Below, in pieces: positions 5,581-61,829 of a DNA stretch of 64,000 nucleotides (position 1 is the stretch's first letter; each line of letters begins with the position of its first letter). This stretch comes from a virus (lineage: Duplodnaviria; Caudoviricetes). The stretch lies in the IMG/VR virus record IMGVR_UViG_2816332632_000001, positions 11,200 to 75,199 of that record; one strand, written 5' to 3'. The translations under genes and the position numbers were made by a program. The notes beneath the pieces were generated by a model. It made no database searches. It saw nothing but the letters and a program-made list of their open reading frames with translations, and was not told the origin of the DNA.

Positions 5581-5589
5581 ACCCATCGG

Positions 5590-15268: not shown

Positions 15269-15275
15269 GAGAGAA

Positions 15276-16297: not shown

Positions 16298-17107
16298 TTG
16301 AGCATCATCGACGGCCAGGGCCTCATCACCTGGGAAGGCGGCCTCTTCGCCCCCGGCAGCGACCTCCTGCGTCGCGTCAAGTGGGCGTTCGGCAAGATCC
16401 GCGCGGCGGGCGGCACCATCTACCTCAACGAGGCGGGCCGCCCCTTCGGCGTTCCCGGCGACGCAAACGTGGGGTGGGAGTGGCAGACCGCTTCCGGTCG
16501 ATCCACCGTGTGGTTCCAGTGGGGGCGCTACCTGCGTGGAGAGACGCCCTCTGCGGCAGACCCACGCTCCGGCAACGTGTTCGCCTCGGAGCACACCCAG
16601 GGCATCGCCATCGACTGCAACGCACCTACGGCGGCGGACGCAGCACTCCGCGCCAAGTACTTCGCTCAGGCGGGACTCAAGAACACCATCTCGTCCGAGT
16701 CCTGGCACTGGGCCATCCGCGGCAACCCGCTCGTGGACATCAGCATCGACACCGCGTCAGACGGCGCAACACCTCTCACGAACGGAGACGACGAATTGTC
16801 CGCAGCAGAAGTGGCCGACATCAAGGCCCACATCACCGCAGAGACCAACCGCCTCGCTGACTACGTGCGCCGCGAGTCGCGCCTGCGCCTCTACAAGAAC
16901 TCGGTCACCGGCAAGTTCATGGCGGCCTCGATCCTGACCGGCCGCTACGAGATCCTCTCCGGCCAGTCCGAGGTCGACTCGCTGGTCCAGAACGGCTACC
17001 TCGAGATCGGCAACGGCGACGCGGTCAACCCGCAGATCGTCGACGAGACGCGCTGGGCCAACATCATCGCCAAGTGCCCGGTCAACATCAAGGCGCTGGC
17101 CCACTGA
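16298..17107 (+). CDS. Endolysin, M15-family Zn peptidase
   Basis: SEHTQGIAID and ESWHW motifs. Confidence 0.85.
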   Translation: MSIIDGQGLITWEGGLFAPGSDLLRRVKWAFGKIRAAGGTIYLNEAGRPFGVPGDANVGWEWQTASGRSTVWFQWGRYLRGETPSAADPRSGNVFASEHTQGIAIDCNAPTAADAALRAKYFAQAGLKNTISSESWHWAIRGNPLVDISIDTASDGATPLTNGDDELSAAEVADIKAHITAETNRLADYVRRESRLRLYKNSVTGKFMAASILTGRYEILSGQSEVDSLVQNGYLEIGNGDAVNPQIVDETRWANIIAKCPVNIKALAH

Positions 17108-17108
17108 C

Positions 17109-17438
17109 ATGAACGACGACGAAATCCCCAAAGACTTCACCGGCCTCGCGGTCGCGATGGGGGTCGTCCAGGAAGGGCAGCGCAACATTTTGCAGGCGTT
17201 CACCGACTTTAAGAAGGACCAGGTGAAGGCGGTCGACGACATCCGCGCGGAGCACGCCGCAACGCGGACGGAGGTTGAGGGCGTGAAGACGCGGCTGACC
17301 GTCATCGAGTCGCAGGCGCGCCCGAAGACGCCCTGGTTCATCGTCGTCAGCGCCATCGGCGTCATCGTCACCACCGTAGGCGGCGGTATCGGCCTACTCG
17401 CCAGCATGTCTCAAATCGCAGCAGCGGTCGGCAAGTAG
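17109..17438 (+). CDS. Lysis-cassette membrane protein (coiled coil plus one TM)
   Basis: C-terminal hydrophobic helix, follows endolysin. Confidence 0.7.
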   Translation: MNDDEIPKDFTGLAVAMGVVQEGQRNILQAFTDFKKDQVKAVDDIRAEHAATRTEVEGVKTRLTVIESQARPKTPWFIVVSAIGVIVTTVGGGIGLLASMSQIAAAVGK

Positions 17439-17460
17439 CCGGCACCCAGGAGGAACCCTT

Positions 17461-18738
17461 TTGTCACGCAAGACCGACGCACTACTCGCCGACCCGGACT
17501 TCGCGGCGGCCATCAACAGCGCAGAGTCGCTGCGCCCCATTGCACAGCGCTACGGCGTCAGCTTCGGCTTCGTGCAGAAGGCCAGAGCAGAAGGGCTCTG
17601 TGAAGGCGTCGAAGGCGTGGAACCGGCGACGGTCGGCGACTCCCGCGAGGAGTCATCCGACGGGCGCATCACCATCGAGAAGAAGGCCGACCGGATCATC
17701 CCCCTGTCGGAGTGGCTCGACGACCTCCGCCGCGACGGCTACAACCCCGACGACTACACCACCTCGCACCGTCACTCCGTCTGGACGCAGCACACCGCCA
17801 AGGGCATCACGAAGACGCTCTACTCGAACGCATTCTCCGCCGTCAAAAAGCCGGTGAAGGAGCTTGCGGCGACGGCAAGGATCGACTGGGAAGCCGCCTC
17901 CAAGTTCGTGGAGGGGTTCACCTACATCCCCGCCAAGCGCGACTTCCTCGTCGACACGGCCATCCTCCAGCCGACCGACGAGCAGTGGGGCAAGACCGAC
18001 TTCGACGGCGGCACGCCTCAGACCGAAGAGCGGGTCATGAACTCGTACGCCGCGTTCGCTGACTACGTCCGCGAGTACCGCCCACGCCAGGCGTTTTTCG
18101 CGCGCACGGGTGACGGCATCGAGAACTTCTGCAACACCCCGTCGCAGCGCGACACCAACGATCTCGACCTTCCGGCGATGATTACCCAGTCGTTCAAGAT
18201 GGACCTCGCGGGCACGGCCATGATCGCGCCCCTCGTGCAGGAGCTCGTGGAGGCGTACGTGCCGTCCAACCACTCCCGCTGGCGCACTGGAGCGAAGGCG
18301 GACGCCGGCAACGCGCACGCCGACTTCGGCCTCACCGTCGCCAACCAGCTCCGCGCGATGCAGTCGCTCATGGGCATCCTCCCCAACGTGAAGATCCTCA
18401 CGCCGGAGCCGCACATGGAGTCGATGACGGTGCAGCTTGACACGCTGCGCGCCGGACTCGTCCACGGCCACCAGACCAACTCCCCCGACAAGATCGGCGA
18501 GTGGTGGAAGGGCCAGGACCACGGCCGGATGCCCACCTGGGATGCGGACATTCTATTCGTCGGCCACTTCCATTCGCTCCGCATCTACCAGTCCGGCGAC
18601 GGTCGCTGGATCGTCGTCGGTCCCGCAAGCGACAACGGCTCCTCGTGGTTCTCCAACCTCAAGGGCGAGCGCGCTCGATCCGGGATGCTGGCAATGGCGA
18701 TCGAAGGCAAGCGCTGGCGCTTCCAGGAGATCCTCTAG
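17461..18738 (+). CDS. Calcineurin-like metallophosphoesterase / exonuclease
   Basis: D.Q.GK, GD.IE, PSNH, HGH, VGHFH motifs. Confidence 0.8.
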   Translation: MSRKTDALLADPDFAAAINSAESLRPIAQRYGVSFGFVQKARAEGLCEGVEGVEPATVGDSREESSDGRITIEKKADRIIPLSEWLDDLRRDGYNPDDYTTSHRHSVWTQHTAKGITKTLYSNAFSAVKKPVKELAATARIDWEAASKFVEGFTYIPAKRDFLVDTAILQPTDEQWGKTDFDGGTPQTEERVMNSYAAFADYVREYRPRQAFFARTGDGIENFCNTPSQRDTNDLDLPAMITQSFKMDLAGTAMIAPLVQELVEAYVPSNHSRWRTGAKADAGNAHADFGLTVANQLRAMQSLMGILPNVKILTPEPHMESMTVQLDTLRAGLVHGHQTNSPDKIGEWWKGQDHGRMPTWDADILFVGHFHSLRIYQSGDGRWIVVGPASDNGSSWFSNLKGERARSGMLAMAIEGKRWRFQEIL

Positions 18739-44859: not shown

Positions 44860-45285
44860 TTAGTGCTCGCACGTGCGAATGAGGGTGGACAGGCCACCCA
44901 CGGTGACGTAATAGCCGGTCAGGGTGTGGCCCGTGTGCAGGTAGTGGCCACGCGCCTCCCGGCCATTCATGACCGTTTCCCTGGGGTCAAACGGCTTCAC
45001 TGTGGCTGTTGCATCCGTGGTAGCCACGACGAGAACATAGGCAGCGGTAAGGGCATCCTCCATGTCCTCAATGGGCCAACCGCCTACAGCGTGCACGCCG
45101 GGCAGGGTTACCGTGTTGCGGACGTGCGCGATGATATCGGCATCCGTGGCACCATCCTCCGCGTCCTCACTGCTGCGCTGGTCCTCCACCACAAGCGCTA
45201 CCGCCTGTGCATAGGTGATGGGTGCGATATCCATAATGGCCGGTCCTCCCGGGGTAGTGGTGGAGGGCTCATCCCTCAACCTCAT
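44860..45285 (-). CDS. Hypothetical protein, first gene of leftward early operon
   Basis: TAGGAT-6nt-ATG promoter overlapped by operator. Confidence 0.55.
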   Translation of the reverse strand: MRLRDEPSTTTPGGPAIMDIAPITYAQAVALVVEDQRSSEDAEDGATDADIIAHVRNTVTLPGVHAVGGWPIEDMEDALTAAYVLVVATTDATATVKPFDPRETVMNGREARGHYLHTGHTLTGYYVTVGGLSTLIRTCEH

Positions 45286-45556
45286 AGAACCATCCTACCA
45301 AATTAGCTAGTTAAAGTGTAGCGATTAGATAGCTAAATGTACGGTTTTATTACCCCACAATGGGTGACATGAAACGAGCTCGAGCGCGCCGGCATGATGG
45401 CAAGCTCGGGTGCCGGCCGGGGGCATGAGCTCATAGTGTGCCGGGAAACATCCCATATTTTGGTGGCGAATGGGGGTGTTTGCGGGTGCGGCCAGTGCCG
45501 TGAAAATTTTTCGCGATCCGGGCCAAACCTGAATATCCCACCACTACCCTGATGTC

Positions 45557-45742
45557 ATGTCCGACGATCCTCTCCTCAATCCCGTGTGCACCGTGCGGGA
45601 TCTCCAGGCCGCCCTTGCCAGCGTGCCACCTGACACCGAGATTCGAGCGTTCGCAGGCATGGACTCGTCGGTCATCGTCAGCTTTCGGGACGGTCGAGAC
45701 TGGCGCGACCTTGCATACTTCCGGCCCGACGGCGACGACTAG
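45557..45742 (+). CDS. Hypothetical protein
   Basis: Leaderless TACCCT-6nt-ATG. Confidence 0.55.
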   Translation: MSDDPLLNPVCTVRDLQAALASVPPDTEIRAFAGMDSSVIVSFRDGRDWRDLAYFRPDGDD

Positions 45743-45790
45743 CCCGCCCCGAAAGTGGCCCCCGAATCGCGGCTACGCTTGATATGCACC

Positions 45791-45862
45791 CACCGCTTAG
45801 TTCAATGGCAGACACACCGGCGCGCAAGCCGGAGACGGAGCGTTCGATTCGCGCCAGCGGCA
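45791..45862 (+). pseudogene. Degenerate tRNA-like element
   Basis: CCGCT/AGCGG acceptor, AATGGCA D loop, CCGGC-GCGCAA-GCCGG arm with 6-nt loop, TTCGATT T loop. Confidence 0.5.
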
Positions 45863-45870
45863 GGTGACCT

Positions 45871-45943
45871 TGCCCCGTAGCGCAACTGGTAGAGCGCCTG
45901 ATTCTGGATCAGGAGGTTGTTGGTTCGAATCCAGCCGGGGCAG
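45871..45943 (+). tRNA. tRNA-Gln(CUG)
   Basis: Full cloverleaf; CCTGA-TTCTGGA-TCAGG anticodon arm. Confidence 0.92.
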
Positions 45944-45954
45944 CGCAACACCGA

Positions 45955-46027
45955 TGGCCCGTAGCTCAGTTGGTAGAGCATCCGCCTGTTAAGCGGACGG
46001 TCGCAGGATCGAGACCTGCCGGGCCAG
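45955..46027 (+). tRNA. tRNA-Asn(GUU)
   Basis: Full cloverleaf; TCCGC-CTGTTAA-GCGGA; atypical T loop ATCGAGA. Confidence 0.88.
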
Positions 46028-46029
46028 CC

Positions 46030-46251
46030 TCACTGCCCTTCGGCGAGCCGCTGCTCCGCCTGACGCACAGCCAGGTTGCGTGCCGCCTCAGCTTCGATGC
46101 GCTGCGCCTGGATCTGGGCGGCCAGTGCGGCGCGAGCATCGCGCTTCTTCTTCGACTCGAGCGGGATGCCGAGCATTGCGGCGCCGAACACCACCAGGAA
46201 GAAGCCGACGACGAGCACGATGCCAACCACGATGGCGATACCCAGAATCAT
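46030..46251 (-). CDS. Single-TM membrane protein
   Basis: N-terminal hydrophobic helix; leaderless TACGGT-6nt-ATG. Confidence 0.7.
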   Translation of the reverse strand: MILGIAIVVGIVLVVGFFLVVFGAAMLGIPLESKKKRDARAALAAQIQAQRIEAEAARNLAVRQAEQRLAEGQ

Positions 46252-46284
46252 GCTCCAACCGTAGCCGACAGCGCCGACAGGGCT

Positions 46285-46440
46285 CTACTCCCCCGAATCC
46301 GGGGCATCCTCGAGCTCGTTGCGGCCGGCGGCCGCTTGCTCCTTCGACCGCGCCAGCAGTTCAACGTCGATCCGCTCCCAGTCCAGTGGCTTCGGGTAGT
46401 CGCCCTTGAAGCCGTCTGCATTCTCTCGTCCAGTAGGCAT
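46285..46440 (-). CDS. 51-aa acidic protein under a LexA box (putative antirepressor)
   Basis: MPTGRENADGFKGDYPKPLDWERIDVELLARSKEQAAAGRNELEDAPDSGE; TTGAAA-17nt-TATGTT-6nt-ATG. Confidence 0.7.
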   Translation of the reverse strand: MPTGRENADGFKGDYPKPLDWERIDVELLARSKEQAAAGRNELEDAPDSGE

Positions 46441-46442
46441 GT

Positions 46443-46460
46443 ATCGAACATATGTTCGAT
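46443..46460. promoter_or_regulatory. LexA (SOS) box
   Basis: ATCGAACATATGTTCGAT matches actinobacterial TCGAAC-N4-GTTCGA exactly. Confidence 0.88.
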
Positions 46461-46591
46461 TTGCTTCATTTTCAAGCTGGAAAATGTACGGTTATTAGCT
46501 AGCTAATCGGTGGGATTAGCCCACTAATTGCGATAGTGTTGGTGTTGTTCGGGCGTGGAAGCCCAGCAAACACAACGAATTGGAGGATTCA

Positions 46592-46972
46592 TTGACCAAC
46601 TTCAAGCACGGCAAGCGCGTCAGACTCGTGGAGAGTGATCTGCTGCGCATCTATGACATCCCGATGCGCGACGGCAAGTACCGCGTTCGCATCGACTTCG
46701 ACGAGCTCGAACTTCTGGACGTCGTCGACATCCACACGGGCCTCGGCAAGTTCCTGGACTCGAAGGACGCCCTGCCCGTCGCCTACAGCGCCCTCGACCC
46801 CGACGTTCTCGAGGCGACACTGCGCAGCTTCATCTCCGACCTCGACTACGACCTGCACAAGAGCATCGACGAGGACGAGGAGACCAACGAGAACCGCTAC
46901 CCGGAGCAGGTCGAAGCGTTCCTCGCCGCCTACGAGAAGGCCGTCGAGAAGGCTCTGGAGGACGCCGAATGA
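46592..46972 (+). CDS. Hypothetical acidic protein
   Basis: TTG after GGAGG; tandem operators upstream. Confidence 0.65.
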   Translation: MTNFKHGKRVRLVESDLLRIYDIPMRDGKYRVRIDFDELELLDVVDIHTGLGKFLDSKDALPVAYSALDPDVLEATLRSFISDLDYDLHKSIDEDEETNENRYPEQVEAFLAAYEKAVEKALEDAE

Positions 46973-47307
46973 GCGCACTGCCCACGGTACCCGAGTCCAC
47001 CGTCTACCCAGCGAGCGTCGTCTCCGACCCGGATCTTGCGCGGCACCTCGCCCTGCGCGAGAACTCGGACCGCCTCGCAGAAGCGTCGAGGCGAGCAGGG
47101 ATTCTCGCCCGCTTTGAGCGCAAAGAACTAGACCCCGAGACCGTCCGGGGGATCGCGAACTCGACATCCCACTTCCGCGACGTCGCCAACCTCATCATCA
47201 AGGGTACGAAGCCCGGCCGAGAGCAGACTCTCGCGCTCACCGCCCTCGAGGAGGCGAAGTTCTGGACCAACCAGAGCATCGCAATGAACGGGGTGATGTC
47301 CAAGTGA
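46969..47307 (+). CDS. Acb2/Tad1-like helical hairpin protein
   Basis: PGREQTLALTALEEAKFWTNQSIA. Confidence 0.65.
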   Translation: MSALPTVPESTVYPASVVSDPDLARHLALRENSDRLAEASRRAGILARFERKELDPETVRGIANSTSHFRDVANLIIKGTKPGREQTLALTALEEAKFWTNQSIAMNGVMSK

Positions 47308-48235: not shown

Positions 48236-48835
48236 CGACAGCAGCGCAGGCCGCGCAAATCCTCGCCCTCCCCCTCGACCCCGAGGAGAACGACGCCGAA
48301 GCTTCGACTGTCGGAGAGTACCTCGGCGCAATCCTCAAGGCCCTTCTGGTTGAGCAGGAATGCTTCAGCGGGAAGCGCCCGCTCGGCAACTCCGGCTGGG
48401 AGGGGCCGCTCGAGGACGCACTCGACGGGGCTGGCTACGAGTGGTCAGCCCTGCACGCGGCCGCCGTGCTCGGGCTGGGTGGCGAGCGATGAGCGCCACC
48501 CGCCAGGTCGAGCGCCGCGGCGTCGGCTTCCTCACCCTCCTCACCCTGCTGTTCATCGCCCTCAAGCTGCTCGGCGTCATCGCCTGGTCGTGGCTCTGGG
48601 TGCTCTCGCCGCTGTGGATTCCGAGTGTCCTCGTTCTGGTGGCCGCGGTCATTATCCTCGTCGTCTACGTGCTGGTCGGCAAGAAGCGGGGGCGTCGATG
48701 ATCGCGCCCCTGGCCGCCTTCGTTGGCGGGATAGTCGTCGGCGTCATCGTCACCGGCGGCGCCTGGTACGGGTGGTTCATCAGCACCTTCGGCCCGGCAG
48801 ACGAACAGGACATCGACCGGAAGGAGCAGGCATGA
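48232..48835 (+). CDS. Three small genes: 48232-48492, 48489-48701 (membrane, LFIALKL.GVI.WSW.WV.SPLW) and 48698-48835 (membrane)
   Basis: Coupled overlaps; hydrophobic helices. Confidence 0.65.
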
Positions 48836-49420: not shown

Positions 49421-50426
49421 ATGACGAAGACCATCATCAGACTCGACGCCAAGAGCCGCCTCTCCGTCGGCCGCTACACCGAACTCGAGCCCGGCTCGTA
49501 CTTCCGCATCGAGAAGGCCGAAGGCGGCACGCTTACCCTCACGCCGGTCCCGGTCGAGGCCCCTGAAACCGAGGTGGCTGCATGAGCCAGACGAAACGCG
49601 TCGGCCTCCGGCGCATTCTCCCGACGGTCATCAACTCGCACATGTTCCGCGCAGAGCTCAATCGGGCGATCGACGAGCTTGAGCAGCACGAGGCCAAGAC
49701 GGGCGAGCAGATCATCTGGGCGACGATCGACCTTGAAATCGAAGAGGACCAGATCGACGACCGCACGTTCGCCGGCATGGATGCCGAGGTGTCCGTGCTG
49801 CGCTCCCTGCGATTCGGGGCGTACGCCACCGTCCCCGGAGGTGAGGATGAGTAACCGCGCCGCGCTCATCGCGCTCATCCTCGCGTACTGGACGTGCCGC
49901 GCCCTGGCGGCCGCCAGCATCTTCGGCACGCTGACATTCCTGGCCGTCTACGTAGCGACCGGCCAGCCGCAGTTTGGCTACGCGGCGGTGGTCTGCATCG
50001 GTTCGATGGTCGGCTTCGTCATTGCGGGTGCCGTCGCGCAGAATTGGGCTCGCGCATGACGATCACGACCGGAGACTACGTGACCATCGGCCGCAACAAG
50101 CTCACGTGGCGCGTCATTCGGATCGTCGACGGCGTGGCCCAACTCGCCTCCGGCAACTCCAGCCGCCACCGCTTCGAGCACGTGGTCCGTCTCCGACTCT
50201 TCGGCGTGGGAGGCGAGAAATGACCGCCAACATGCGCTACGGCTCCGCGGACATGCTCATCGCCCAGGCCGGAATCGACCCGAACACAGTTTCGACACTC
50301 GGCGTGACCGCACAAGGGTACTGGGAGCCGCAGGGGCGGCGCGGAGACGCCGAGTGCTTCGTATGGCGCTCATGGCCAAGCCAGCAGATCGGTTCCGAGA
50401 TCTACCAGGCGCTCAACCCACGGTGA
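49421..50426 (+). CDS. Small genes: 49421-49585 (AbrB-like), 49582-49854, 49847-50059 (membrane), 50056-50223, 50220-50426
   Basis: Coupled overlaps; RLDAKSRLSV...TLTLTP AbrB-like pattern. Confidence 0.55.
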
Positions 50427-52090: not shown

Positions 52091-53485
52091 TTGGCTGCTG
52101 GCACGAAGGCGCAATCCGGTACTGCGCCGCGGGTAACTGGTTACGACACGGACATTAAGTACTACGCGAACCGGTACAAGCAGGGCGGCAGGACGACCTA
52201 CTCGTTGAACCTTTCGCCCCTACAGGTGATCTCGACGATTCATCGCCCGGACCCCAGCCAGGCGACACCCGGCAACCGCGCGATCAATGCGAAGCACGCC
52301 CAAGGATTTGCCAAGTACTTCCGCGAGCACGACTCCTGGGTGGTGCCCGGCATGATTATGCGCGTGGCTGAGCCGTTCGACTTCGAGCTAATCGAAGAGG
52401 TCGAGGGCGCATCCTTCGGAGTCATTTCGTTCCCACGACAGGCGGCCGGAGACATTCACATCCTCGACGGTCAGCACCGCATCCTTGGCTTCTACCTGGC
52501 TAGCGAGCAGATCAACCAGGATCTCGACAAGGCGCGGAATCAGCTTGCAATGGCCCGCCGCGTCGACCCACACGGCGCTGCCGTTCGGGAGGCAGAGAAC
52601 CGGATCAAGGAGTTGGAGGCGCAGCGCGCACGTTTCGAGCGGGAGCGCGTGGACCTCACCATCGTGGTCGAGTCCGACCCGGCTGCGTACAAGCAGATGT
52701 TCTTCGACATCGCCGACAATGCCAAGGGGATCAGCGGCTCCGTCAAGGCGCGATTCGACGCCCGCAAGGTCGTCAACCGCTCACTCGAGGCCGTTCTGCT
52801 CCACCCGCTGCTGCTGAACCGAGTCGACATCGAACAGGACCGCATCGGCCGCGGAAGCATCTACTTCCTGGGCGCGCGGCACGTCGCCGAGATCATCCGA
52901 AGCGTCATCGTCGGACTCGACGGGCGCGTGAGCGCTCGGCAGGACAAGGAGTGGAAGGAGGTCGACGTCGCGGCGAAGGCCAACCAGTTCTTCGATGTGC
53001 TGCTCGAGGCGTTCCCGCCACTGCGGGCGATGAGCCTCGGCCAGCTTCTCCCGGACCAGCTTCGAAAGACAAGCCTGCTCGGCTCCGTCCTCATGATCCG
53101 CATTCTCGCCGGCGTCTACCACGACCTCGTCACGAATCACGCGTTCACGCCAGAAATGGTGGCGAACTACTTCGCGAAGCTCAGTCCGCACATGGAAGGA
53201 CCGGTCTACCCCGGCTCGATCTGGCTCGATCGCACCCCCACCGGCGCATTCGGCGATGGGGCAATGGCTCCAAACGGGCGCCGCCAGGAGGCCAAGGCAT
53301 TCAAGAACGCCCTGGTCGACTGGGCGGTTGAGGCGCCCGACTTCCTCGACGAAGCTCCCGCACCCCGACCCGTCGCGGAAGAGGCTGCCGAGCTCGAATT
53401 GACGGAGGAGGCCGCCGACGAGGTGCTGCGCCCGGAGACAGCCCGCGCACGCAAGAGCGCCAAGGATGCCGCGCCCGTTGGCTGA
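52091..53485 (+). CDS. DGQHR-domain / DndB-family protein (ParB-Srx fold)
   Basis: GNRAIN..HA, HILDGQHR, QMFFDI..NAK; SD GAGGAGG. Confidence 0.85.
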   Translation: MAAGTKAQSGTAPRVTGYDTDIKYYANRYKQGGRTTYSLNLSPLQVISTIHRPDPSQATPGNRAINAKHAQGFAKYFREHDSWVVPGMIMRVAEPFDFELIEEVEGASFGVISFPRQAAGDIHILDGQHRILGFYLASEQINQDLDKARNQLAMARRVDPHGAAVREAENRIKELEAQRARFERERVDLTIVVESDPAAYKQMFFDIADNAKGISGSVKARFDARKVVNRSLEAVLLHPLLLNRVDIEQDRIGRGSIYFLGARHVAEIIRSVIVGLDGRVSARQDKEWKEVDVAAKANQFFDVLLEAFPPLRAMSLGQLLPDQLRKTSLLGSVLMIRILAGVYHDLVTNHAFTPEMVANYFAKLSPHMEGPVYPGSIWLDRTPTGAFGDGAMAPNGRRQEAKAFKNALVDWAVEAPDFLDEAPAPRPVAEEAAELELTEEAADEVLRPETARARKSAKDAAPVG

Positions 53486-53801
53486 CAACGTCATCTACGG
53501 ACTGTCCTGCCGCTGCCATCCGGCGGCAGGGCTCCGGTACGTGGGCCTCACTTCGAGGGGGCTCACGTACCGGCTCGCCCAGCACCGTCGAGATGCTGCG
53601 AATACAACAGTGAATCGGATGCACCTGTGGATGCGCGAGCACGATGTGGTCGGCGAGGTGCTGGAGGTGCTGCCGAGCCGCAGCGAGCTTCGAGTCGCTG
53701 AGTTGAGGTGGATGGCTCGCCTCCGCGGCCAGGGTGCGGATCTCTTGAACGGGACGGACCACTGGAAGGTCGTCGACGGGGTCTGGCTTCGGGCAAGCTG
53801 A
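53478..53801 (+). CDS. GIY-YIG-like endonuclease
   Basis: VIYGL...RYVGLT...RLAQH...E..W...LLN. Confidence 0.75.
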   Translation: MADNVIYGLSCRCHPAAGLRYVGLTSRGLTYRLAQHRRDAANTTVNRMHLWMREHDVVGEVLEVLPSRSELRVAELRWMARLRGQGADLLNGTDHWKVVDGVWLRAS

Positions 53802-53834
53802 GGACTACCTGTATGTAAGCTGTAAACTGGCTGT

Positions 53835-54344
53835 ATGCCACAGGAGATCCGAGCCGTTCCCGCGAACGTCGTCGACCACAAGCTCCTGATGAACGCGGCC
53901 AACATGAGCCCCGTCGAGCTCAGCGCCGAGGTCAACGGAATCCTGCGCCCCGAGGTTGCCGCAGCCCGAGTCAAAGAGCTTCTGCGCGCACGCGACTGGC
54001 TCACCGACACCGAGCTCGACAACCTCGTCACGTACAAGCTCCAGAAGGCGCTCGCGCGCCTCGAGGGCCAGTACCTCGACAACGAGAACCTCGAGCTCCA
54101 GCTCAAATTCCTTCGCGAGATCGCGGGCCGCCTCGACAAGCGCCGCGCGGCCACGACCGTCGACCTCAACACGCTCTACGGCAACAACGGCCGCCTCATG
54201 GCGCAGATCTACGACATGTGCCTCGCGTACATGAAGGGCGCGCTGCGCGAGAAGATCGACGCGGACCTGTGGGACGAACTCGCCCAGGAGGCGCTCGACC
54301 ACGCCAGCCTCGAGATCTCCCGGCACGAGGCGATCGAGGCATAG
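53835..54344 (+). CDS. Putative terminase small subunit
   Basis: Helical 169 aa directly before TerL; leaderless promoter. Confidence 0.6.
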   Translation: MPQEIRAVPANVVDHKLLMNAANMSPVELSAEVNGILRPEVAAARVKELLRARDWLTDTELDNLVTYKLQKALARLEGQYLDNENLELQLKFLREIAGRLDKRRAATTVDLNTLYGNNGRLMAQIYDMCLAYMKGALREKIDADLWDELAQEALDHASLEISRHEAIEA

Positions 54345-56032
54345 TGCTCGACCCCCGCATCCTCCAGGCCGCCAAGGCGGAGTCCGAGACGATCCGCAAG
54401 AAGCGGCAGTACGTCAACGACCCCGTCCTCTGGGCGCGCGAGTACCTCGGCATCATCCTTTGGTCGAAGCAGAAAGAGATCCTCTACTCGATCCGCGACA
54501 ACCGTAAGACGGCGGTGGCGGCCGGCCACGGTGTCGGCAAGTCGTTCGTCGCGGCCGTCGCGATGGCATGGTGGATTGACGTACATCCGCTCGGCGCCGA
54601 CGAGACGGGCGCCCCACAGACCTTCGTGGCGTCGACCGCGCCCTTCCAGGACCAGATCACGACCATTCTGTGGACGAACGTGCTGATCCTCCACCAGCTT
54701 TCGCAGAAGCGCCACACGGAGTACCTGCGCCGCAAGGAGCGCGGCGAAGACCTCGGCGACTACGCCGCAGCCGACCACGCGCTCCCCGGCTACATCACTG
54801 GCCAGAACAAGTGGATGTATAACGGCATGGTCATCGGCCAGGGCCGGAAGCCACCGGACAACAAGGCCGACTCCGGCTACCAGGGAAAGCACGCCACGTA
54901 CCTCCTCGCCATCGGCGATGAGGCCGCTGGCCTGAATGCAGACATGATCGGCGCGCTCGGCAACATCACCACCGGTGACTTCAACCGAATGCTGCTCATT
55001 GCCAACCCGACCGACCCGACCTGCGAAATGGCGAAGATCTGGTCGGACAACAACGCGGAGTGGCACACCATGCACATCTCCGTGTTCGACTCCCCCAAGA
55101 TCACCAACGAGCCCGGCTTCCCGGAAGAGCGCATGTCGGCGCTCTCCGGCCAGGCGTACATCGACGAGATGGCTGCAACCCACGGAGTCGACGACCCGCA
55201 GTACATCTCGCGCGTGCTCGGCCAGTGGGCTTTCGAGGCTGGCAACACGGTGTTCAGCGAGTTCGAGATCGCACAGGCCGCGAACACCGTCGTACTCCCC
55301 GACCCCAACGCCCTCCGTCGCCAGGGATGGGACATCGCCCGCATGGGCAAGGACTCGACCATCGGGTATCAGTGCGTCGAGGGCGAGGTCTGGGAGACGG
55401 ACCCCGAGACGACGAAGCCAATTCGTCCGACCGGTCGCCGCGGTCTCTACATCCGACTCATCGACGAGTGGCGCAAGGCACCCCTGGTCAGTTCCAACCC
55501 CGAGAACCTCGGCTCGGCGCAGCGCATCGACGGGTACGCCCTCGCCGAGGGTGCGGCCATCCTCAACATCGACGCATCCGGCATGGGCTCCGCCATCGTC
55601 GACGGACTCGCCGAGATCAACCTCGACCGCTCCATCGAGCCGTACGTCGTCCTCGAGGTCTTCGGCAACGCGACACCGACGGACACCCGAGCCTTCCGCA
55701 ACCTCCGCGCCGAGCAGTACTTCGAGCTCAAGCGCCGGTTCTTCGCCGGTGAAATCGACGTCGACCCGACGGACAAGCGACTGCTCGACGAGCTTCGCGG
55801 CATCGTCTACGAGTACACCGAGGGCGGCGCACGCAAAATCGAGTCGAAGGACAAGATGAAGGCCGCCGGCAAGAAGTCCCCCGACGCGGCCGACGCCTTC
55901 TGGTACGCCGGACTCGACGTTAGCGAGCTAATCGACGGACCGCTCGCCGGACTCAACCCTGGCGACGTCGTGCGCCGCGATCCGTGGGAGATTCTCAACG
56001 TTGCGCGGACTGGTGCGGGAATGCCCTGCTAA
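54344..56032 (+). CDS. terL: Terminase large subunit
   Basis: AGHGVGKS, IGDEA, ANPT, WDIARMGKDS, IDASGMG, KSPDAADA. Confidence 0.95.
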   Translation: MLDPRILQAAKAESETIRKKRQYVNDPVLWAREYLGIILWSKQKEILYSIRDNRKTAVAAGHGVGKSFVAAVAMAWWIDVHPLGADETGAPQTFVASTAPFQDQITTILWTNVLILHQLSQKRHTEYLRRKERGEDLGDYAAADHALPGYITGQNKWMYNGMVIGQGRKPPDNKADSGYQGKHATYLLAIGDEAAGLNADMIGALGNITTGDFNRMLLIANPTDPTCEMAKIWSDNNAEWHTMHISVFDSPKITNEPGFPEERMSALSGQAYIDEMAATHGVDDPQYISRVLGQWAFEAGNTVFSEFEIAQAANTVVLPDPNALRRQGWDIARMGKDSTIGYQCVEGEVWETDPETTKPIRPTGRRGLYIRLIDEWRKAPLVSSNPENLGSAQRIDGYALAEGAAILNIDASGMGSAIVDGLAEINLDRSIEPYVVLEVFGNATPTDTRAFRNLRAEQYFELKRRFFAGEIDVDPTDKRLLDELRGIVYEYTEGGARKIESKDKMKAAGKKSPDAADAFWYAGLDVSELIDGPLAGLNPGDVVRRDPWEILNVARTGAGMPC

Positions 56033-56077
56033 TAGATCCTGATTATTAGCTGGGTGTTCGCTGATAGACTGCTGAAC

Positions 56078-57682
56078 GTGCCAGAAATCGCCGAAGTAGC
56101 CCCCGAAACCCGCGAAGACCTCGAAACTGCCCTCGAAGCAGTGATGACGGCGAACGGGTTCCTTGCCGAGGATCTGGACCGCGTGCGGCAGATGTTCAAG
56201 GCGGAGGACATCGGTTGGTTCCGATTCGGCGATGGCAACACCGAGCACGGCATGACGAAAGAGGATCTCGACGACTGGTCGGGGCAGATCCGCGAAGCGA
56301 TCATCGGCAACACCTGGATCAAGGCGGGTATCCGACTGCGGAACTCGTACGTCCTCCAGGGCGGCGGGATTCACTACGAGAACATCCCGGCGGACTCGGA
56401 TGGCCGCAAGAAGACCGCCAACGTTCAGGCCCACATCGACAACCCGATCAACAAGGCGCACTTCTTCGGCATGGGCGCGCGGAAGGAGCGCGAGAGCGCC
56501 CTCTATTCCGACGGCAATGTGTTCTACCTCGGCGACGACGAGACCCGCACCCTCGACCCGGTGCCGCTCTGGGAGATCGACGGCGACTACCGCAACCCCG
56601 AGAACGACGCGCAGATCTGGGCGTACCGCCGCAGGTGGAGCTACTACCCGCCCGGAAAGTCGGCCCCCGAAGAGCGGGTGGCCTGGTATTTCACCGACAC
56701 CTACAAGTCCAAGGCCACAACGAGCGACGGCAAACTCGTCACCACCATCACGCACGCGGGCAAGGCCGAGAAGGTCGATAACGGCAAGACCATGTTCGAC
56801 GGCCGGGTGAACACTCAGATCGGCTGGGCGTACGGGGTGCCGGATGCCGTGATTGCGCTCGTGTGGGCGCGCATCTACCGCGACTTCATGACCAACGGCA
56901 AGATCATGACGGACGCGCTCGCGCAGTTCGCCTTCCAGGCGGTCCAGGAGACGCAGAAGGGCAGCAACAACGTCGGCCTCCAGATGGCCGGGGTCAAGCG
57001 CGCTGGCGCAACCGTGGTCACGAACAGCCCCAACGGGCTCGTGCCGCTGTCGTCCGCTGGCAAGGGGTACGACTTCCCTTCCGGCGTCGCCTTGCTCGCC
57101 GCCGTCGCTACGGCCATTGGCGTCTCCGTTATCCACCTCTCCGCCGACCCCGGCACCGCCGGCGGCAGCTACGGCTCAGCATCCACTCTCGACCTGCCGA
57201 CCTTGCTCGCAACCAACGATCGCCGCGAGTGGCACATCGAGTTCGACCTTCGCGTGCTGCACTGGATGGGCGCCAACGACGCACACGCCTACTTCAAGCC
57301 GCTCACCAACCCGACCGACCTCCTGCGACTCATCCAGGGCTTCGTCGCACTGTGGAACACCGGCAACTACTCGTCCGACGAGTTCCGCAAGATGGTCGAC
57401 GAGCTCCTCGGCAACATCCCCGGCCAGGCGCCGGAGGGGGTCATGCTTCCGAACAACAGCAACTTCACCGACACCCTGACCAACGACGGCCAAGCCCCTG
57501 CCGACACCACATCCACCAAGGGCAAGGCCGCGACCGGCCAGGGCAAGGCGACGAAGTCGGGCAACAGCCCGAAGGGCAACGACCTCCGCACGGACACGCT
57601 CGCCAACTCCCTCCTCGAGGACAAACTCGACCACGTGCTCGAACGCATCGAGGCGCTCATGCTTCTCGACCGAGCGGCCTAA
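56078..57682 (+). CDS. Portal protein
   Basis: Follows TerL; DGNVF, GWAYGVPD, GSYGSA..LD. Confidence 0.85.
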   Translation: MPEIAEVAPETREDLETALEAVMTANGFLAEDLDRVRQMFKAEDIGWFRFGDGNTEHGMTKEDLDDWSGQIREAIIGNTWIKAGIRLRNSYVLQGGGIHYENIPADSDGRKKTANVQAHIDNPINKAHFFGMGARKERESALYSDGNVFYLGDDETRTLDPVPLWEIDGDYRNPENDAQIWAYRRRWSYYPPGKSAPEERVAWYFTDTYKSKATTSDGKLVTTITHAGKAEKVDNGKTMFDGRVNTQIGWAYGVPDAVIALVWARIYRDFMTNGKIMTDALAQFAFQAVQETQKGSNNVGLQMAGVKRAGATVVTNSPNGLVPLSSAGKGYDFPSGVALLAAVATAIGVSVIHLSADPGTAGGSYGSASTLDLPTLLATNDRREWHIEFDLRVLHWMGANDAHAYFKPLTNPTDLLRLIQGFVALWNTGNYSSDEFRKMVDELLGNIPGQAPEGVMLPNNSNFTDTLTNDGQAPADTTSTKGKAATGQGKATKSGNSPKGNDLRTDTLANSLLEDKLDHVLERIEALMLLDRAA

Positions 57683-57720
57683 CCTGAAAGTTACCTGGGA
57701 ATCAGCTGTACGCTAGATGT

Positions 57721-58656
57721 ATGGCACGTCAGGTACTTCACGAGTCGTTCACGACTCTCCTTGAGCGCAAGGGCGCGCGCTGGCGTGCGGTCCTCATCAC
57801 TCCCGGCCAGGGCTCCAGCGGCTTCTACGCCGAGTCGATGCTCGAGGCTAACCTGCACGCCTTCGAGGGCAACGTCGTCAAGAACTACTTCAAGCACCCC
57901 GAGAAGCCGGGCGCCCAGCGCGACCCGCGCGACCAGTGGGGCTACGTCGAAGAGGGCACCGTGCGCTACGAGCCCGGTGTCGGCGTCGTCGGCGAGATCA
58001 ACGTCCTCGACCACTGGAAGCCGGTCATCGAGTCGCTCGCCAAGGCGGGTCAGGCCAGCCTCTCCGTCTACATCAGCGCCGAGCGCGACAGCGACGGCAA
58101 TGTGACGGCCCTCTACCCCCACGTGAAGAACTCCGTGGACCTCGTGGACTACCCCGGCCGCCCAGGCTCGGCGCTCACGGAACAAATGCTCGAGTCGGCA
58201 CTTGCCGGCTTCAACGAACCTGCTGTCGAAGCCTCGGCAGAGGAGAAAGAAGACCCAATGACCCCGGAAGAGCTCAAGGCCGCACTGGCCGAAGCACTCG
58301 CCCCTGTCATCGCCTTCGTCACCAAGGAGAAGGACTCTGCCGACGAGCAGGTCCAGGCCGAGGCGGATGCCAAAGCCGTGGACAAGGCCGTCGAAGAGCG
58401 CCTCGCTGCCATCGCCGAGAAGGAGGCTGCCATCGCGGCTGCCGAAGATCTCTCGCCGAAGCAGATCGAGAGCCTCAAGGCAGCAGCCCACAAGGGTGAG
58501 GACATCACCCAGCTCCTCGAGGACGCCAAGGCGATCGCAGCCGATTTCAAGACCCTCAGCGAGTCGCACGACGTCGAAGGCTACGGCCGCGTCGTCGAGT
58601 CCGCTGGCAACAGCAACGACGACTTCACCGTCGCAGGATTCGGAGGTTCGTTCTAA
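57721..58656 (+). CDS. Capsid maturation protease / scaffold
   Basis: ITPGQGSSGFY, SVDLVDYPGRPG; acidic helical C-terminal half. Confidence 0.8.
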   Translation: MARQVLHESFTTLLERKGARWRAVLITPGQGSSGFYAESMLEANLHAFEGNVVKNYFKHPEKPGAQRDPRDQWGYVEEGTVRYEPGVGVVGEINVLDHWKPVIESLAKAGQASLSVYISAERDSDGNVTALYPHVKNSVDLVDYPGRPGSALTEQMLESALAGFNEPAVEASAEEKEDPMTPEELKAALAEALAPVIAFVTKEKDSADEQVQAEADAKAVDKAVEERLAAIAEKEAAIAAAEDLSPKQIESLKAAAHKGEDITQLLEDAKAIAADFKTLSESHDVEGYGRVVESAGNSNDDFTVAGFGGSF

Positions 58657-59081
58657 TGGCGACCAACGCAGTCTTCCCGTACAGCGAGACGGGCACCGAG
58701 CTCTGGACCCTCGCAGCCACCACGGCGCCCGGTACGCCGGTCGTCGGCGGCGCAGGCGGCGCACAGCCCGGCGTGACCCTCACCGGCACCGGCGACTACA
58801 CCGTCAGCCAGGTCGTCGGCCCGTACACCGTCTCGGGCATCCCCCGCGGCGCGCAGGGGCTCGCGGCCAAGGAGGCGACCATCGCCACCGATGGCACCTG
58901 GGACTTCCCCGTAGCGGGTGGAGACCTCACCACGGCCCAGAACACGCTCGTCTACATCAAGACGGACAACACCCTCACCACAACGGTCGGCACCAACAAG
59001 GTCTTCGGGAAGGTCAACTACCCCAAGGACTACGTGAAGGTCGCCGGCACCCTCCCCGTCAAGATCGGAGTGTTCGCGTAA
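58656..59081 (+). CDS. Capsid decoration/cement protein
   Basis: Gly/Thr-rich 141 aa between scaffold and major capsid. Confidence 0.65.
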   Translation: MATNAVFPYSETGTELWTLAATTAPGTPVVGGAGGAQPGVTLTGTGDYTVSQVVGPYTVSGIPRGAQGLAAKEATIATDGTWDFPVAGGDLTTAQNTLVYIKTDNTLTTTVGTNKVFGKVNYPKDYVKVAGTLPVKIGVFA

Positions 59082-60187
59082 TGAGCGACCGCGTATACAA
59101 GGACAAGTTCACCCTCGACGGCCGCCTGCACCCGCAGCGCGGCGCATCGCGGGCCAAGGTGCTCGAGGCGAAGGCGCTCATGGAGCGCGCGCTGAGCGGC
59201 GACTACGAGGCGGATGCGAAGCTCCGTCGCCTGGTCACCTCCGAGGCGTACACCTCTGCCGACCTGGCTCCGGCCGTCGCGCACCTCGTCAACCTCCAGA
59301 CGATCCCGCAGTTGGACAAGCCGCAGTACAGCGTGTCCGACCTGGCGAGCGTCCGCGTGGTCAAGGACTTCAACCCGGCCGTCCTATACTCCCTGTACGG
59401 CGACCTCAAGGGCTCTGGCATCGACGCGAACGGCGCCCCGGCGCGCGTTCCCGAGGGCCAGCAGTACCCGACGGTGACCGTGAGCGGCGTCGAGTCGTTC
59501 TACGCGGCACTGGCCAAGCGCGGTGTGCGGTTCGACTTCACCTGGGAGGCGCAGATCAACGACACCGTCGGCTTCTTCGCAGACCTGCCCGGTGAGATCG
59601 CGCAGCTTTCGCACGACGCGGACTACGCCGAGGTGCTCAACGCGATCCTCTCGGCTCCGTCCTCGAGCAACCTCGCCGGTGGCACCCTCCCGAACGGCGT
59701 CGTGGTTCCGGCCATGTCGAAGCTCACCCCGGATGCCATCTGGCAGGCGAAGTTCGAGCTCTCGCAGCGCAAGATCAACGGCCGCCTGATCGGCGAGGCT
59801 TCGGGCTACAACGTCCTGGTCCCGGTTGGCCGCAAGGGCTTCATCGACTACGAACTCAACAAGCAGCTCGTCGAGTTCAGCGAAGGCACGCTCAAGTTCT
59901 CCGGCGCCTCGTACTACCAGGGTGCGCTCGGGAACGTCACGACCGTCGAGTCGCCTCGCATCACCGGCGACTCCTGGGTCATGCTGCCGAAGCCGGGTGC
60001 CACGAAGCGCCCGTCGGTCGACCTGCTCAAGCTGCGCGGCTACGAGACCCCGGAGCTTCGCGTCCGCCAGGATGGCGGGGACTCCTCGTTCGACACCGAC
60101 ACGAAGGCGTTCCGCCTGCGGTACGTCGTCGGTGGCGCACTGTGGGACTCGAAGTACATCCTCAAGTCCGACGGATCTGCTGCCTAA
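59081..60187 (+). CDS. Major capsid protein
   Basis: VKDFNP, VPEGQQYP, FTWEAQINDT, SFDTDT..FRLR. Confidence 0.88.
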   Translation: MSDRVYKDKFTLDGRLHPQRGASRAKVLEAKALMERALSGDYEADAKLRRLVTSEAYTSADLAPAVAHLVNLQTIPQLDKPQYSVSDLASVRVVKDFNPAVLYSLYGDLKGSGIDANGAPARVPEGQQYPTVTVSGVESFYAALAKRGVRFDFTWEAQINDTVGFFADLPGEIAQLSHDADYAEVLNAILSAPSSSNLAGGTLPNGVVVPAMSKLTPDAIWQAKFELSQRKINGRLIGEASGYNVLVPVGRKGFIDYELNKQLVEFSEGTLKFSGASYYQGALGNVTTVESPRITGDSWVMLPKPGATKRPSVDLLKLRGYETPELRVRQDGGDSSFDTDTKAFRLRYVVGGALWDSKYILKSDGSAA

Positions 60188-60198
60188 GCAACAGCACA

Positions 60199-60241
60199 GA
60201 CGCGAAGGGGCCGCCCGAATTGGGCGGCCTCGCGTCGTTTA
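60199..60241 (+). terminator. Terminator after major capsid gene
   Basis: GACGCGA..GGCCGCCC/GGGCGGCC-TCGCGTC followed by TTT. Confidence 0.7.
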
Positions 60242-60294
60242 AGCAGCTAATCCTATCTGGGAGTTAGCTGTGTGAATGCTGATAGACTAGCGAT

Positions 60295-60362
60295 GTGGTT
60301 CTCCTCCAGCCACCGAAACGCCCCAGGAATTGAGCCGACGCTCTTCCTGGGGCGCTTCCAAT
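60295..60362 (+). ncRNA. Putative two-hairpin small RNA with CUCCUCC loop
   Basis: Own TAGACT -10 (60283-60288); GTGGTT-CTCCTCC-AGCCAC and CGCCCCAGGAA/TTCCTGGGGCG stems. Confidence 0.5.
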
Positions 60363-60401
60363 TCTGGGAGTTGCCTGAGTGTTAGCTGATAGAATTGCGG
60401 C

Positions 60402-60881
60402 ATGACCAACCCCGGCCTGAGCCCCATCAATCCGTCCACACTGGTGGGTAAGTTGCGGCTCGAGATCGGTGACGTTCACGGGGAGCCGCTGGACCCCGAG
60501 GTTCCCGGCCAGCTCGACTACGACTGGTTCAGCGACAGCGAGCTCGCGCAGTTCTTCGGCGACGAGTCGTCGGTCCTCCGGGCCGCCGGGCGCGCCGTCC
60601 GACAGCTTGCCCTTGGCGGCGGCCTCAAGGCCATCTCGATCAAGACCGACGACCTGTCCCTCGACTCGCAGAAGCGCGGCTCGACCCTACTGGAGATCTC
60701 GCAGGCTTACTTCGCAGACGCGGACGCCGCAGACTCGCGCACAAACGGCGACCTCTTCCAGGTCATCCCCTTCGGCGGCATCAGCACGCCGGCCCCAGGC
60801 GCCGACCTCTCCTGGGGCGCTCCGCCCGCACAGCACTCCTTCCGGCCTGACCCCTTCAACCCCGGCTACTTCGTCGCATGA
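60402..60881 (+). CDS. Head-to-tail adaptor
   Basis: VGKLRLEIGD...FSDSEL...IKTDDLSLD pattern. Confidence 0.75.
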   Translation: MTNPGLSPINPSTLVGKLRLEIGDVHGEPLDPEVPGQLDYDWFSDSELAQFFGDESSVLRAAGRAVRQLALGGGLKAISIKTDDLSLDSQKRGSTLLEISQAYFADADAADSRTNGDLFQVIPFGGISTPAPGADLSWGAPPAQHSFRPDPFNPGYFVA

Positions 60882-61829
60882 GTACCTGGCTGATTCCGGG
60901 CGTCGACGCGGAAACGAAGCTCTTCCCTCAGCCCACGATGGACGCCCTCGCGGACGCCCTGGGCGCCACGCCTGACGAGATTCAGGCGGCCGTGGAGGAG
61001 TACCTCACCGCCAACCCTCCGGCAGCCGGAGAGCCTCTCCTGGCCGCGCACGTTGCCGATCCCGAGCCCCATCCGGCCTACGACGACACCCCCTCCCTGT
61101 CGACCCTCTTCGAGAACGGCCTTGTCTAATGTCCCTCGTCTCCAACCTCCAGTCCCTCGCCACACGCATCGCCACTGAGCTCAAGGCGCACCGCGTCCTC
61201 ATCAATGGCAACGCGACCGACCTCTCGGCACTGACGACCACGCAGAAGTCCAGCCTGGTTGCCGCCATCAACGAGGTCGTCGCCTCGATCAGCGCAGGCG
61301 GCGGTGCAGCGATCGACGACGCGACTACGAGCACGACCAAGGTGTGGTCCTCGAGCAACACTCAGGCCAAGATCGTCGCCGCTGTCGCAGGAGTCGTCGC
61401 TTCGGCTCCCGGCACGCTGGACACGCTCAAGGAGCTCGCGGATGCGCTTGGCGACGACGCGAACTTCGCGGCCACCACGGCGACCGCGCTCGGCAACCGC
61501 GTCCGCTTCGACGCGGCACAGACCCTCACCACGCAGCAGAAGGCGCAGGCGAACAGCAACGCAGGCTCGCTCTCGCTCGTGGACGCCGGTGACCCGACCA
61601 CGAACTTCGTCACGACTTTCGAGGCCGGTCTGGTATGAGCCTGGTAGCGAACGTCACGGCGCTCGCCGCGCGGATCGCCACTGAGTTCAAGTCGATCCGC
61701 GCGGCGCTCGACGCCAAGGCGCGCACTGGAGCGAACGGGCGAACCGACCTCGGGCTCTACAGCATCGCGAAGGACGGGCCCACCGCGGGCATCCCGGAAG
61801 GCTCCATCATCTTCGAGTCGCTCTCGTGA
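60878..61829 (+). CDS. Three small virion-associated genes (60878-61129, 61129-61638, 61635-61829)
   Basis: APGTLDTLKELADALGDDANFA fibre motif; paralogous N-termini. Confidence 0.65.

Follow-up and report, generated by a model that had tools for sequence, protein, structure and literature searches.

A small gene under predicted LexA control, found in a temperate actinophage and in phages otherwise unrelated to it

The stretch of DNA analysed here (the window, 64,000 bases) comprises bases 11200-75199 of a 75,199-base IMG/VR 'provirus' record (G000) and derives from a temperate siphovirus-like actinophage with a G+C content of about 65%; positions refer to the window unless they are given as record positions. 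On its minus strand, a perfect LexA (SOS) box is superimposed on the promoter of an open reading frame (ORF) for a protein of 51 amino acids (aa). That this ORF is a real gene under the control of LexA is held with high confidence. Box and gene form a unit (the cassette) which, from its occurrence in other genomes, is very probably portable between otherwise unrelated phages and very probably serves as the damage-triggered part of a switch. The complete proposal, in which the cassette is a portable leaderless SOS micro-gene that LexA represses and that encodes a protein docking on a conserved and probably host-encoded partner, is considered moderately probable.

The initial annotation, which was made from the sequence of the window, had described a perfect LexA box over the -10 element of a minus-strand promoter, an ATG at 46440 and an ORF of 51 aa behind it, and all details of this layout were confirmed (Table 1). 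On the minus strand, the order of elements is TTGAAA (46475-46470), 17 nucleotides (nt), TATGTT (46452-46447), the 6 nt CGATAC, and the ATG, with the box ending 3 nt before the start codon. Together with a flanking A/T, the box forms a perfect palindrome of 18 base pairs (bp), ATCGAACATATGTTCGAT. The perfect pattern TCGAAC-N4-GTTCGA occurs once in the window versus 0.02 times expected (at least once in 2 of 100 shuffles) and is unique in the whole 75,199-base record, in which the reversed control pattern was not found. When up to two mismatches are allowed, 10 boxes are present in the window versus 4.39 expected, a number that was reached in none of 100 shuffles; one box with two mismatches (50280-50295) is located within a coding frame and was discarded. 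A consensus promoter scan of 45300-47000 returned a single promoter-like site with 9 of 12 matches, versus 0.3 expected.

DNA is available for five loci: the window itself, L003 and L004 in the complete IMG/VR phages G002 (44,882 bp) and G003 (40,493 bp), respectively, L007 in Leifsonia aquatica H1aii, and L016 on a metagenome contig. In all five, an upstream LexA box with at most one mismatch is separated from the ATG by exactly 3 nt. Box and ORF are therefore co-conserved with identical spacing, which had been named beforehand as the point on which the idea could fail. The box at L007 (TCGAACATATGTTCGAtacATG) is identical to that of the window, the box at L003 reads TCGAATGTATGTTCGAttcATG, and L004 and L016 share TCGAACGTATATTCGA, which is followed by ttc or gtc and then by the ATG. 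In the 10 pairwise comparisons, the box was identical at 14-16 of 16 positions and the first 28 codons at 49-64 of 84, and the sequence further upstream matched at 10-18 of 41 positions, which is about random. The left half-site is TCGAAC at four loci and TCGAAT at one; this half-site falls within the promoter spacer and a -10 element does not require it, yet it is retained. All substitutions in the half-sites are transitions, and they are found at the symmetric inner positions 6 and 11. The -35-like TTGAAA shows no conservation in the other loci, the upstream flanks of which cannot be aligned. Apart from the cassette, G002 and G003 each carry a second LexA-like box with one mismatch, about 0.1 of which would be expected per genome. 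In G002 (G002:C1:9744-9759, L020; TCGAACAAAAATTCGA) it is found beside the small-terminase gene with a similarly conserved flank, and in G003 (G003:C1:16114-16129, L021; TCGAACAAATATTCGA) in a non-coding gap of ~530 nt between the small- and large-terminase genes.

In mycobacteria, leaderless mRNAs follow from a TANNNT -10 element that ends about 6-7 nt before an ATG or GTG in the absence of a Shine-Dalgarno sequence, a rule that comes from work on transcription starts. At all five loci, the -10 element is TATGTT or TATATT and occupies positions -12 to -7 relative to the A of the ATG. The only bases between it and the ATG are the CGA of the box and 3 further nt, so that there is no space for a Shine-Dalgarno sequence. 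By the position of the -10 element and by this absence, the loci conform to the rule in 5/5 cases. Since the -10 element stands at a fixed distance and a ribosome-binding site has no room, the leaderless design appears to be conserved along with the box.

The sequence TCGAAC-N4-GTTCGA had been taken as the actinobacterial LexA site, and this assignment is upheld both by a published motif and by the SOS genes of a cassette-bearing bacterium. For Streptomyces venezuelae, the available part of the source reports the LexA motif tCGAAC-N4-GNNCGa from chromatin immunoprecipitation sequencing and surface plasmon resonance, and a regulon that includes a radical S-adenosylmethionine (radical-SAM) gene and phage-like genes (PMC9380542). 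The box of the window matches this motif. The L. aquatica genome that harbours the cassette contains five perfect boxes versus none for the reversed control. One of them, identical to TCGAACATATGTTCGA, is located 8 nt before an in-frame ATG at a radical-SAM gene (PF04055). Two others, 1.35 kilobases (kb) apart, flank a DUF3097 gene, the second being positioned at the start of a 237-aa ORF without a Pfam match; the remaining two are the cassette itself and one further box. In addition, boxes with two mismatches are present 131 nt upstream of recA (located by PF00154) and about 107 nt upstream of lexA (located by PF01726), next to a divergent LysM gene. A phage-borne LexA DNA-binding domain was not found in the record, and the box must therefore be read by the LexA of the host. 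Control of the promoter by LexA is strongly supported by these comparisons, from which we infer that LexA would bind the box, that the gene would be SOS-induced and that its mRNA would be translated without a leader.

Evidence for the ORF itself comes from its composition and from its relatives. It is missing from the first ORF track, and the claim that it was unannotated stands in this respect; it does not stand in general, for the identical protein had been predicted earlier by a gene caller on an 80,151-base contig. The ATG is the first start codon after an in-frame stop, and the GC content per codon position (0.75/0.45/0.76) shows the coding pattern of the phage's own genes. A HMMER search of 1.84 billion cluster representatives (E <= 1e-3) returned eight proteins, namely the query itself, P0006 (49 aa), P0007 (55 aa) and five long ones. 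The latter (P0002-P0005 and P0008) are repetitive proteins with 4-7 matched stretches each, such as 'GDYPKALEW' in a tetratricopeptide repeat, and were rejected as artefacts. HMMER and profile searches together delimit a family with 11 distinct members, 39-58 aa in length, which consist of a conserved N-terminal motif of 28 residues and a variable, acidic C-terminal tail. The motif residues are R5, G10, F11, G13, Y15, P16, P18, L19, W21, I24, E27 and L28; in the alignment of all 11 sequences, M1, R5, G10, G13, Y15, P16, P18 and L19 are invariant, and D9, W21 and I24 nearly so. Across the five loci with DNA, 13 alignment columns hold the same amino acid throughout, 8 of them with synonymous codon variants: Arg5 is encoded by CGA, AGG or CGC, and Leu28 by CTG, TTA, CTA or TTG. 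As residues are invariant while their codons differ, selection acts on the protein and not on an RNA or DNA element. Judged by these properties, the ORF is a genuine gene and represents a new protein family.

Other searches did not connect this family to known proteins. No match was obtained in Pfam and PHROGs, a profile search of the PDB returned designed coiled coils alone (E>3), the best score in the ESM Atlas was 0.76 and below the usable range, tblastn against isolated phages gave haloarchaeal noise alone (E>=1), and a word-based protein search found only the query. Single-sequence scans of viral contigs with the 51-aa protein and with proteins of 130, 222 and 112 aa yielded no relatives. 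With the family alignment, AlphaFold2 reached a mean predicted local distance difference test score (pLDDT) of 69.8, with the best values (83-86) at residues 11-30; the model contains a helix at residues 21-38 and no globular fold, a profile that would fit a docking peptide. A 725-aa primase/helicase-like protein (L005/L006 in IMG/VR, at 4830-7007 of L006) contains GFVADYDAPLDWDRIDETL, which resembles the family motif GFKGDYPKPLDWERIDVEL and overlaps a D-x-D read as primase catalytic; the resemblance may be due to chance or to a shared peptide. This match was set aside as probably not homologous.

The portability of the cassette is indicated by the genomes in which it resides. When all six-frame ORFs of the record of at least 40 aa were compared with G002 and G003 by tblastn, the 51-aa ORF alone was recovered, plus a marginal match between the integrases of the window phage and G003 (21% identical, E 7e-4). 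In these two phages, the motif is 64-69% identical to that of the window (tblastn segments of 26-28 residues). The neighbours of the cassette differ in every locus. At L003 and L004, it is located at the prophage end after the integrase gene and a gene for 87-93 aa on the same strand; the next gene is convergent at L003 and encodes an acyltransferase at L004. At L016, the stop codon of the small ORF overlaps the start of a gene for a DUF732 lipoprotein. At L007, the cassette adjoins an insertion sequence (IS) transposase gene and is convergent with a DndB-like gene, being placed between the latter and the packaging genes with no same-strand gene behind it. The window phage and the Leifsonia prophage are distantly related (DndB-like protein 49% identical; terL, terS and deoxynucleoside monophosphate (dNMP) kinase 38-39%), and the cassette of the latter is found at a different place than in the window. 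Because a motif of this similarity is kept in phages with unrelated gene sets and operators, we infer that its partner is conserved and probably belongs to the host.

Briefly, the cassette is proposed to operate as follows. A single operator for host LexA would be superimposed on the -10 element and the transcription start of the promoter of a ~50-aa gene, and the transcript would begin at the ATG, resulting in a leaderless mRNA. In the lysogen, LexA on the box would block RNA polymerase. Upon DNA damage, RecA-stimulated self-cleavage of LexA would free the promoter, leading to the formation of the 51-aa protein and, in the window phage, also of the 73-aa membrane protein encoded behind it. 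The small protein would consist of a docking motif of ~28 residues, comprising an extended GFKGxYPxPLDW segment and a helix, and of a variable acidic tail that is presumably disordered. The motif would bind a conserved partner, most probably a host protein that is active in the SOS response, and via this partner DNA damage would be coupled to the fate of the prophage; a role of the 51-aa protein in induction is possible. More tentatively, the motif could represent a new class of SOS-induced phage micro-proteins that dock on a core damage-response protein of the host, such as RecA, LexA or a factor of replication or division.

The regulatory context of the window phage bears on the alternatives. 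A 14-bp palindrome, ATTAGCTAGCTAAT, is present with up to three mismatches at 20 sites versus 0.16 expected, spread over 1092-55919 (record 12291-67118), and is absent from the 11 kb left of the integrase. Read against the ORF map, 16 of these sites fall between genes or at gene ends and the other 4 within genes; they often stand just upstream of strong ribosome-binding sites. Five pairs with starts 21-22 nt apart were found (1092/1114, 29324/29345, 35645/35666, 45302/45324 and 46494/46515). From this distribution, the palindromes look like operators or 'stoperator'-type sites of a phage regulator. The pair next to the LexA promoter is context and not a component of the portable cassette. The stretches of L003, L004, L016 and L017, the last being a partial relative, cover 1.4-10 kb each around the cassette or the partial relative and contain no palindrome; the L007 stretch contains a single match with two mismatches inside a gene. 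Immediately ahead of their start codons, the operon-first genes at 1147, 35638 and 46580 have 5' regions that are almost the same, CGAA-NN-GGAGGATTCA, and that directly follow a palindrome pair or are near one.

A reader of the palindromes did not emerge from the scans. The Peptidase_S24 domain (PF00717) was not found in G000, G002 and G003, in line with the earlier observation that no self-cleaving repressor was visible, and the ANT and Bro-N antirepressor domains were not found in the record. The HTH_3 profile gave one weak sub-threshold match on the record (E 0.016) and HTH_31 no match, and Pfam and PHROG scans of 20 small neighbouring ORFs provided no repressor candidate. A 169-aa protein with two helix-turn-helix (HTH) domains beyond the integrase was considered as palindrome binder; it is encoded outside the palindrome-bearing region and could not be tied to the palindromes. 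To our knowledge, most repressors of temperate actinobacterial phages lack a self-cleaving domain. The absence of S24 peptidases from the three phage records is compatible with a host partner as well as with a cognate repressor as the target of the peptide.

The latter possibility corresponds to the function originally assigned to the peptide, that of an antirepressor acting on the protein that binds the palindromes. In analogy to Tum, AntC or the Gifsy proteins, the peptide would bind the phage's own lysogeny repressor, the reader of ATTAGCTAGCTAAT, and thereby induce the prophage. Small LexA-controlled antirepressors are indeed known in Gifsy prophages, as the accessible text of PMC3121763 reports, and the LexA box covers the -10 element here as it does at p95 of the tum-orf97 operon in the annotation of the coliphage 186 record. 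Furthermore, the gene is divergent from the 46580 operon with a palindrome pair in between, and a LexA-repressed promoter is found together with the lack of S24 domains in the three phages and of ANT and Bro-N domains in the record. What speaks against this function is that the motif is conserved between phages that share no other protein at E 1e-3 except for the marginal integrase match, and that the palindrome was not found at L003, L004, L016 and L017, with one two-mismatch match at L007. The claim was not upheld on these grounds, the palindrome being missing from four of five stretches. Co-variation of the cassette with a cognate set of repressor and operators was not found, in a comparison in which homology of small repressors may escape tblastn. 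According to the same portion of PMC3121763, the Gifsy antirepressors vary with their repressors and the conserved member of the LexA operon is a DinI homologue. The scans made here provided no repressor candidate, and hhalign detected no sequence similarity to Tum. An antirepressor function is regarded as unlikely.

The remaining explanations are less probable still. The cassette could mainly be an SOS-inducible promoter for variable cargo, chiefly envelope proteins, with the peptide as a helper or translational-coupling element; under stress, the cell surface would be altered or superinfection excluded, as with orf97 of phage 186. The downstream genes differ, yet they encode envelope proteins in 3/5 loci (the 73-aa membrane protein, the DUF732 lipoprotein at L016 and the acyltransferase at L004); the overlap of stop and start codons at L016 would suit translational coupling, and the annotation of the phage 186 record places orf97 behind tum in the SOS operon and credits it with blocking infection. 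The strong protein-level selection on the peptide itself is difficult to reconcile with such an accessory role, and no same-strand gene follows at L007 while the next gene at L003 is convergent; a cargo promoter is thus rather improbable. A cofactor of integrase or excisionase (a directionality helper) that is made only after DNA damage and couples the SOS response to excision would agree with the position of the cassette two genes downstream of a tyrosine integrase gene, on the same strand at the prophage end, in 2/5 loci (L003 and L004). In the window, the distance to the integrase is about 45 kb, and at L007 the gene is placed between the DndB-like and packaging genes. With integrases of the window phage and G003 that are only 21% identical and an acidic peptide for which DNA binding is unlikely, this function appears improbable. 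Finally, the palindrome could be a promoter feature or the site of another factor, or could have arisen by chance, so that the ORF would not be SOS-regulated. The -10 element and the start fall within the box, and the link to LexA is sequence-based. One perfect box was found versus 0.02 expected, both half-sites keep the exact consensus in loci with unrelated flanks, and the motif recurs at the lexA, recA and radical-SAM genes of a cassette-bearing genome, which makes this explanation highly improbable.

Several points weigh against the proposal of a LexA-repressed micro-gene with a conserved host partner. The step to a host partner depends on non-detection by tblastn (E 1e-3), which small fast-evolving repressors can escape. 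Because the -10 element and the start lie inside the box, part of the conservation of the box could reflect promoter function alone. The comparison covers five DNA loci only, two of which (L004 and L016) are close to each other, and the use of the motif at SOS genes was read in one genome, that of L. aquatica. The family is also rare, with one clear and one weak match among 401 genomes of the Leifsonia family. In the partial relative L017, of which only 16 residues are matched, a Shine-Dalgarno sequence is present and the box is absent; this counts as a miss, though homology is uncertain.

The elements of the cassette and the surrounding features of the phage genome are compiled in Table 1.

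Table 1. Elements of the cassette and other features of the window and its record (window positions unless marked as record; "." = no strand assigned)
Feature	Position	Strand	Description
LexA (SOS) box	46444..46459	.	TCGAACATATGTTCGA; perfect 16-bp palindrome, TCGAAC-N4-GTTCGA, 12/12 specified bases
-10 hexamer TATGTT	46447..46452	-	TANNNT type; within the box, last T 7 nt before the A of the ATG
-35-like hexamer TTGAAA	46470..46475	-	17 nt upstream of the -10 hexamer
Predicted leaderless 51-aa ORF	46285..46440	-	Stop included in coordinates; conserved N-terminal motif and acidic tail
73-aa ORF	46030..46251	-	Second of putative operon; N-terminal hydrophobic single-pass membrane segment, charged helical tail
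Operator-like palindrome pair	46494..46528	.	ATTAGCTAGCTAAT and ATTAGCCCACTAAT; starts 21 nt apart, between LexA promoter and 46580 operon
Divergent operon	start TTG 46580	+	Includes Acb2/Tad1-hairpin protein and Phage_VG64 protein
tRNA-Gln and tRNA-Asn	45871-46029	+	
Tyrosine integrase	record 11074-12261	-	Just left of the window
HTH_17 excisionase-like gene	1147-1335		
Tail genes	3515-18738		Include tape measure
Long minus-strand block	19166-45285	-	
dNMP kinase, DndB-like protein, terminase, portal, protease	right of 46580 operon		

The 73-aa ORF behind the small gene has a GGAG 5 nt before its own ATG and a GC content per codon position of 0.77/0.40/0.82, and no terminator-like site was found on the minus strand between the two ORFs. 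Its product is an orphan that matches itself alone and has no counterpart in the other loci; RNA folding of the region gave nothing out of the ordinary (z = -1.0). At 100% identity, 44933-45256 and 45405-46292 are matched by contigs that come from four RNA libraries of a single study and span part of a 141-aa gene, a 61-aa ORF, both tRNAs and the region of the 73-aa ORF. The only other RNA contig in the 5-kb stretch is a short one at 48557-48643. No coverage exists for 46293-46504, which comprises the small ORF and its promoter; these contigs carry no information on strand, start or level, the gap proves nothing, and it was used neither for nor against repression in the lysogen. A short RNA piece of high depth, at about 46027-46191, begins at the 3' end of tRNA-Asn.

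The divergent 46580 operon encodes a 112-aa protein (46969-47307, plus strand) with an above-cut-off match to the Acb2/Tad1 hairpin domain (PF24729, E 8e-7), which may act as a nucleotide sponge against Thoeris or the cyclic-oligonucleotide-based anti-phage signalling system (CBASS). The Phage_VG64 protein of this operon is lipoprotein-like by sequence. The DndB-like (DGQHR) protein (52091-53485, plus strand) is encoded directly upstream of the packaging genes. Its similarity to the Leifsonia prophage extends over 440 aa of a 478-aa ORF at the equivalent place (L007 5174-6610), for which PF14072 was matched with E 5e-34. If the modules at 3515-18738 and at 52091-61000 belong to one prophage, the attachment site and the integrase cassette would be positioned between the head and tail modules, which is unusual. 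A close relative was not found among isolated phages, for which matches were limited to the tRNAs and a terminase fragment; the best matches for the record are phages of Microbacterium, Curtobacterium and Streptomyces. Beyond the integrase, positions 1-11073 of the record (L002) encode a TrwC relaxase with helicase (1259 aa), an ATPase of the SMC/AAA_23 type (624 aa) with a sub-threshold match to DUF3732, and the double-HTH protein of 169 aa. Palindromes and tRNAs were not found in this part, which looks like a conjugative or mobilisable element or an island and not like a phage.

DNA-damage sensing by temperate phages of Actinobacteria is poorly understood, and the locus offers a compact handle with one operator, one leaderless promoter and one 51-aa product, in which operator and peptide are selected together according to the comparative evidence. 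The identity of the partner would show whether the cassette triggers induction, modulates the SOS response of the host as DinI or gp7 do, or serves as a stress-timed cargo promoter. If the motif does define a class of micro-proteins that dock on a core damage-response protein of the host, the cassette would be a repressor-independent plug-in 'SOS sensor' which any temperate actinophage could acquire horizontally and which would tie its induction or survival strategy to DNA damage; it would also be the first such module described for Actinobacteria. It is, moreover, a potential natural minimal SOS-inducible expression element for high-GC Gram-positive bacteria. A description of a gene with a LexA box in an actinobacteriophage was not found in the literature, in a search that left out subscription journals.

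The closest counterparts are found in phages of other bacteria. In coliphage 186, a LexA site likewise covers the -10 element of a dedicated promoter (p95, according to the annotation of the 186 record), which drives a small operon (tum, orf97) away from the immunity region in a phage with a repressor that is not self-cleaved, as far as described in the available part of PMC3121763. Unlike the 51-aa protein, Tum is a protein of 146 aa, one half of which is DinI-like (probability 0.09% when the family profile was compared with Tum by hhalign), its mRNA has a leader (the -10 element ends at 29049 and the coding sequence starts at 29082 of the 186 record), and it acts on its cognate CI, whereas the motif described here is common to phages with unrelated gene sets. 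The dinI-gfoA/gftA-irsA operons of the Salmonella Gifsy prophages are similar in being LexA-controlled and far from the immunity region, in encoding small proteins and in coexisting with uncleaved repressors (PMC3121763, same part). They differ in phylum and LexA motif and in what is conserved: in Gifsy it is DinI, which binds RecA filaments, and the antirepressor varies (ibid.), whereas here the 51-aa protein is conserved and the downstream gene varies. Since the conserved DinI homologue has the RecA filament as its partner, this operon is a precedent that points to a conserved host partner. The gp7 protein of Bacillus phage GIL01 is also a phage protein of roughly 50 aa (ORF7 has 50 aa in the record) that is tied to LexA control in a prophage without a CI-type repressor, according to the available sections of PMC4551915; it shows no sequence similarity to the family (hhalign probability 0.2%). 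With the actinobacterial LexA promoters of lexA, recA, the radical-SAM/splB-like gene and imuA'-dnaE2, the cassette shares the 16-bp motif near the start codon (Leifsonia genome and PMC9380542), and it differs from that regulon in that the gene is a phage accessory gene and not a repair gene. In architecture, the cassette is thus like p95-tum-orf97 and the Gifsy operon; by sequence, its product falls outside the Tum and gp7 families. What is new is the actinobacterial setting, the strict conservation with which operator, -10 element and leaderless start are fused, the tiny product consisting of a motif and an acidic tail, and the portability between unrelated phages.

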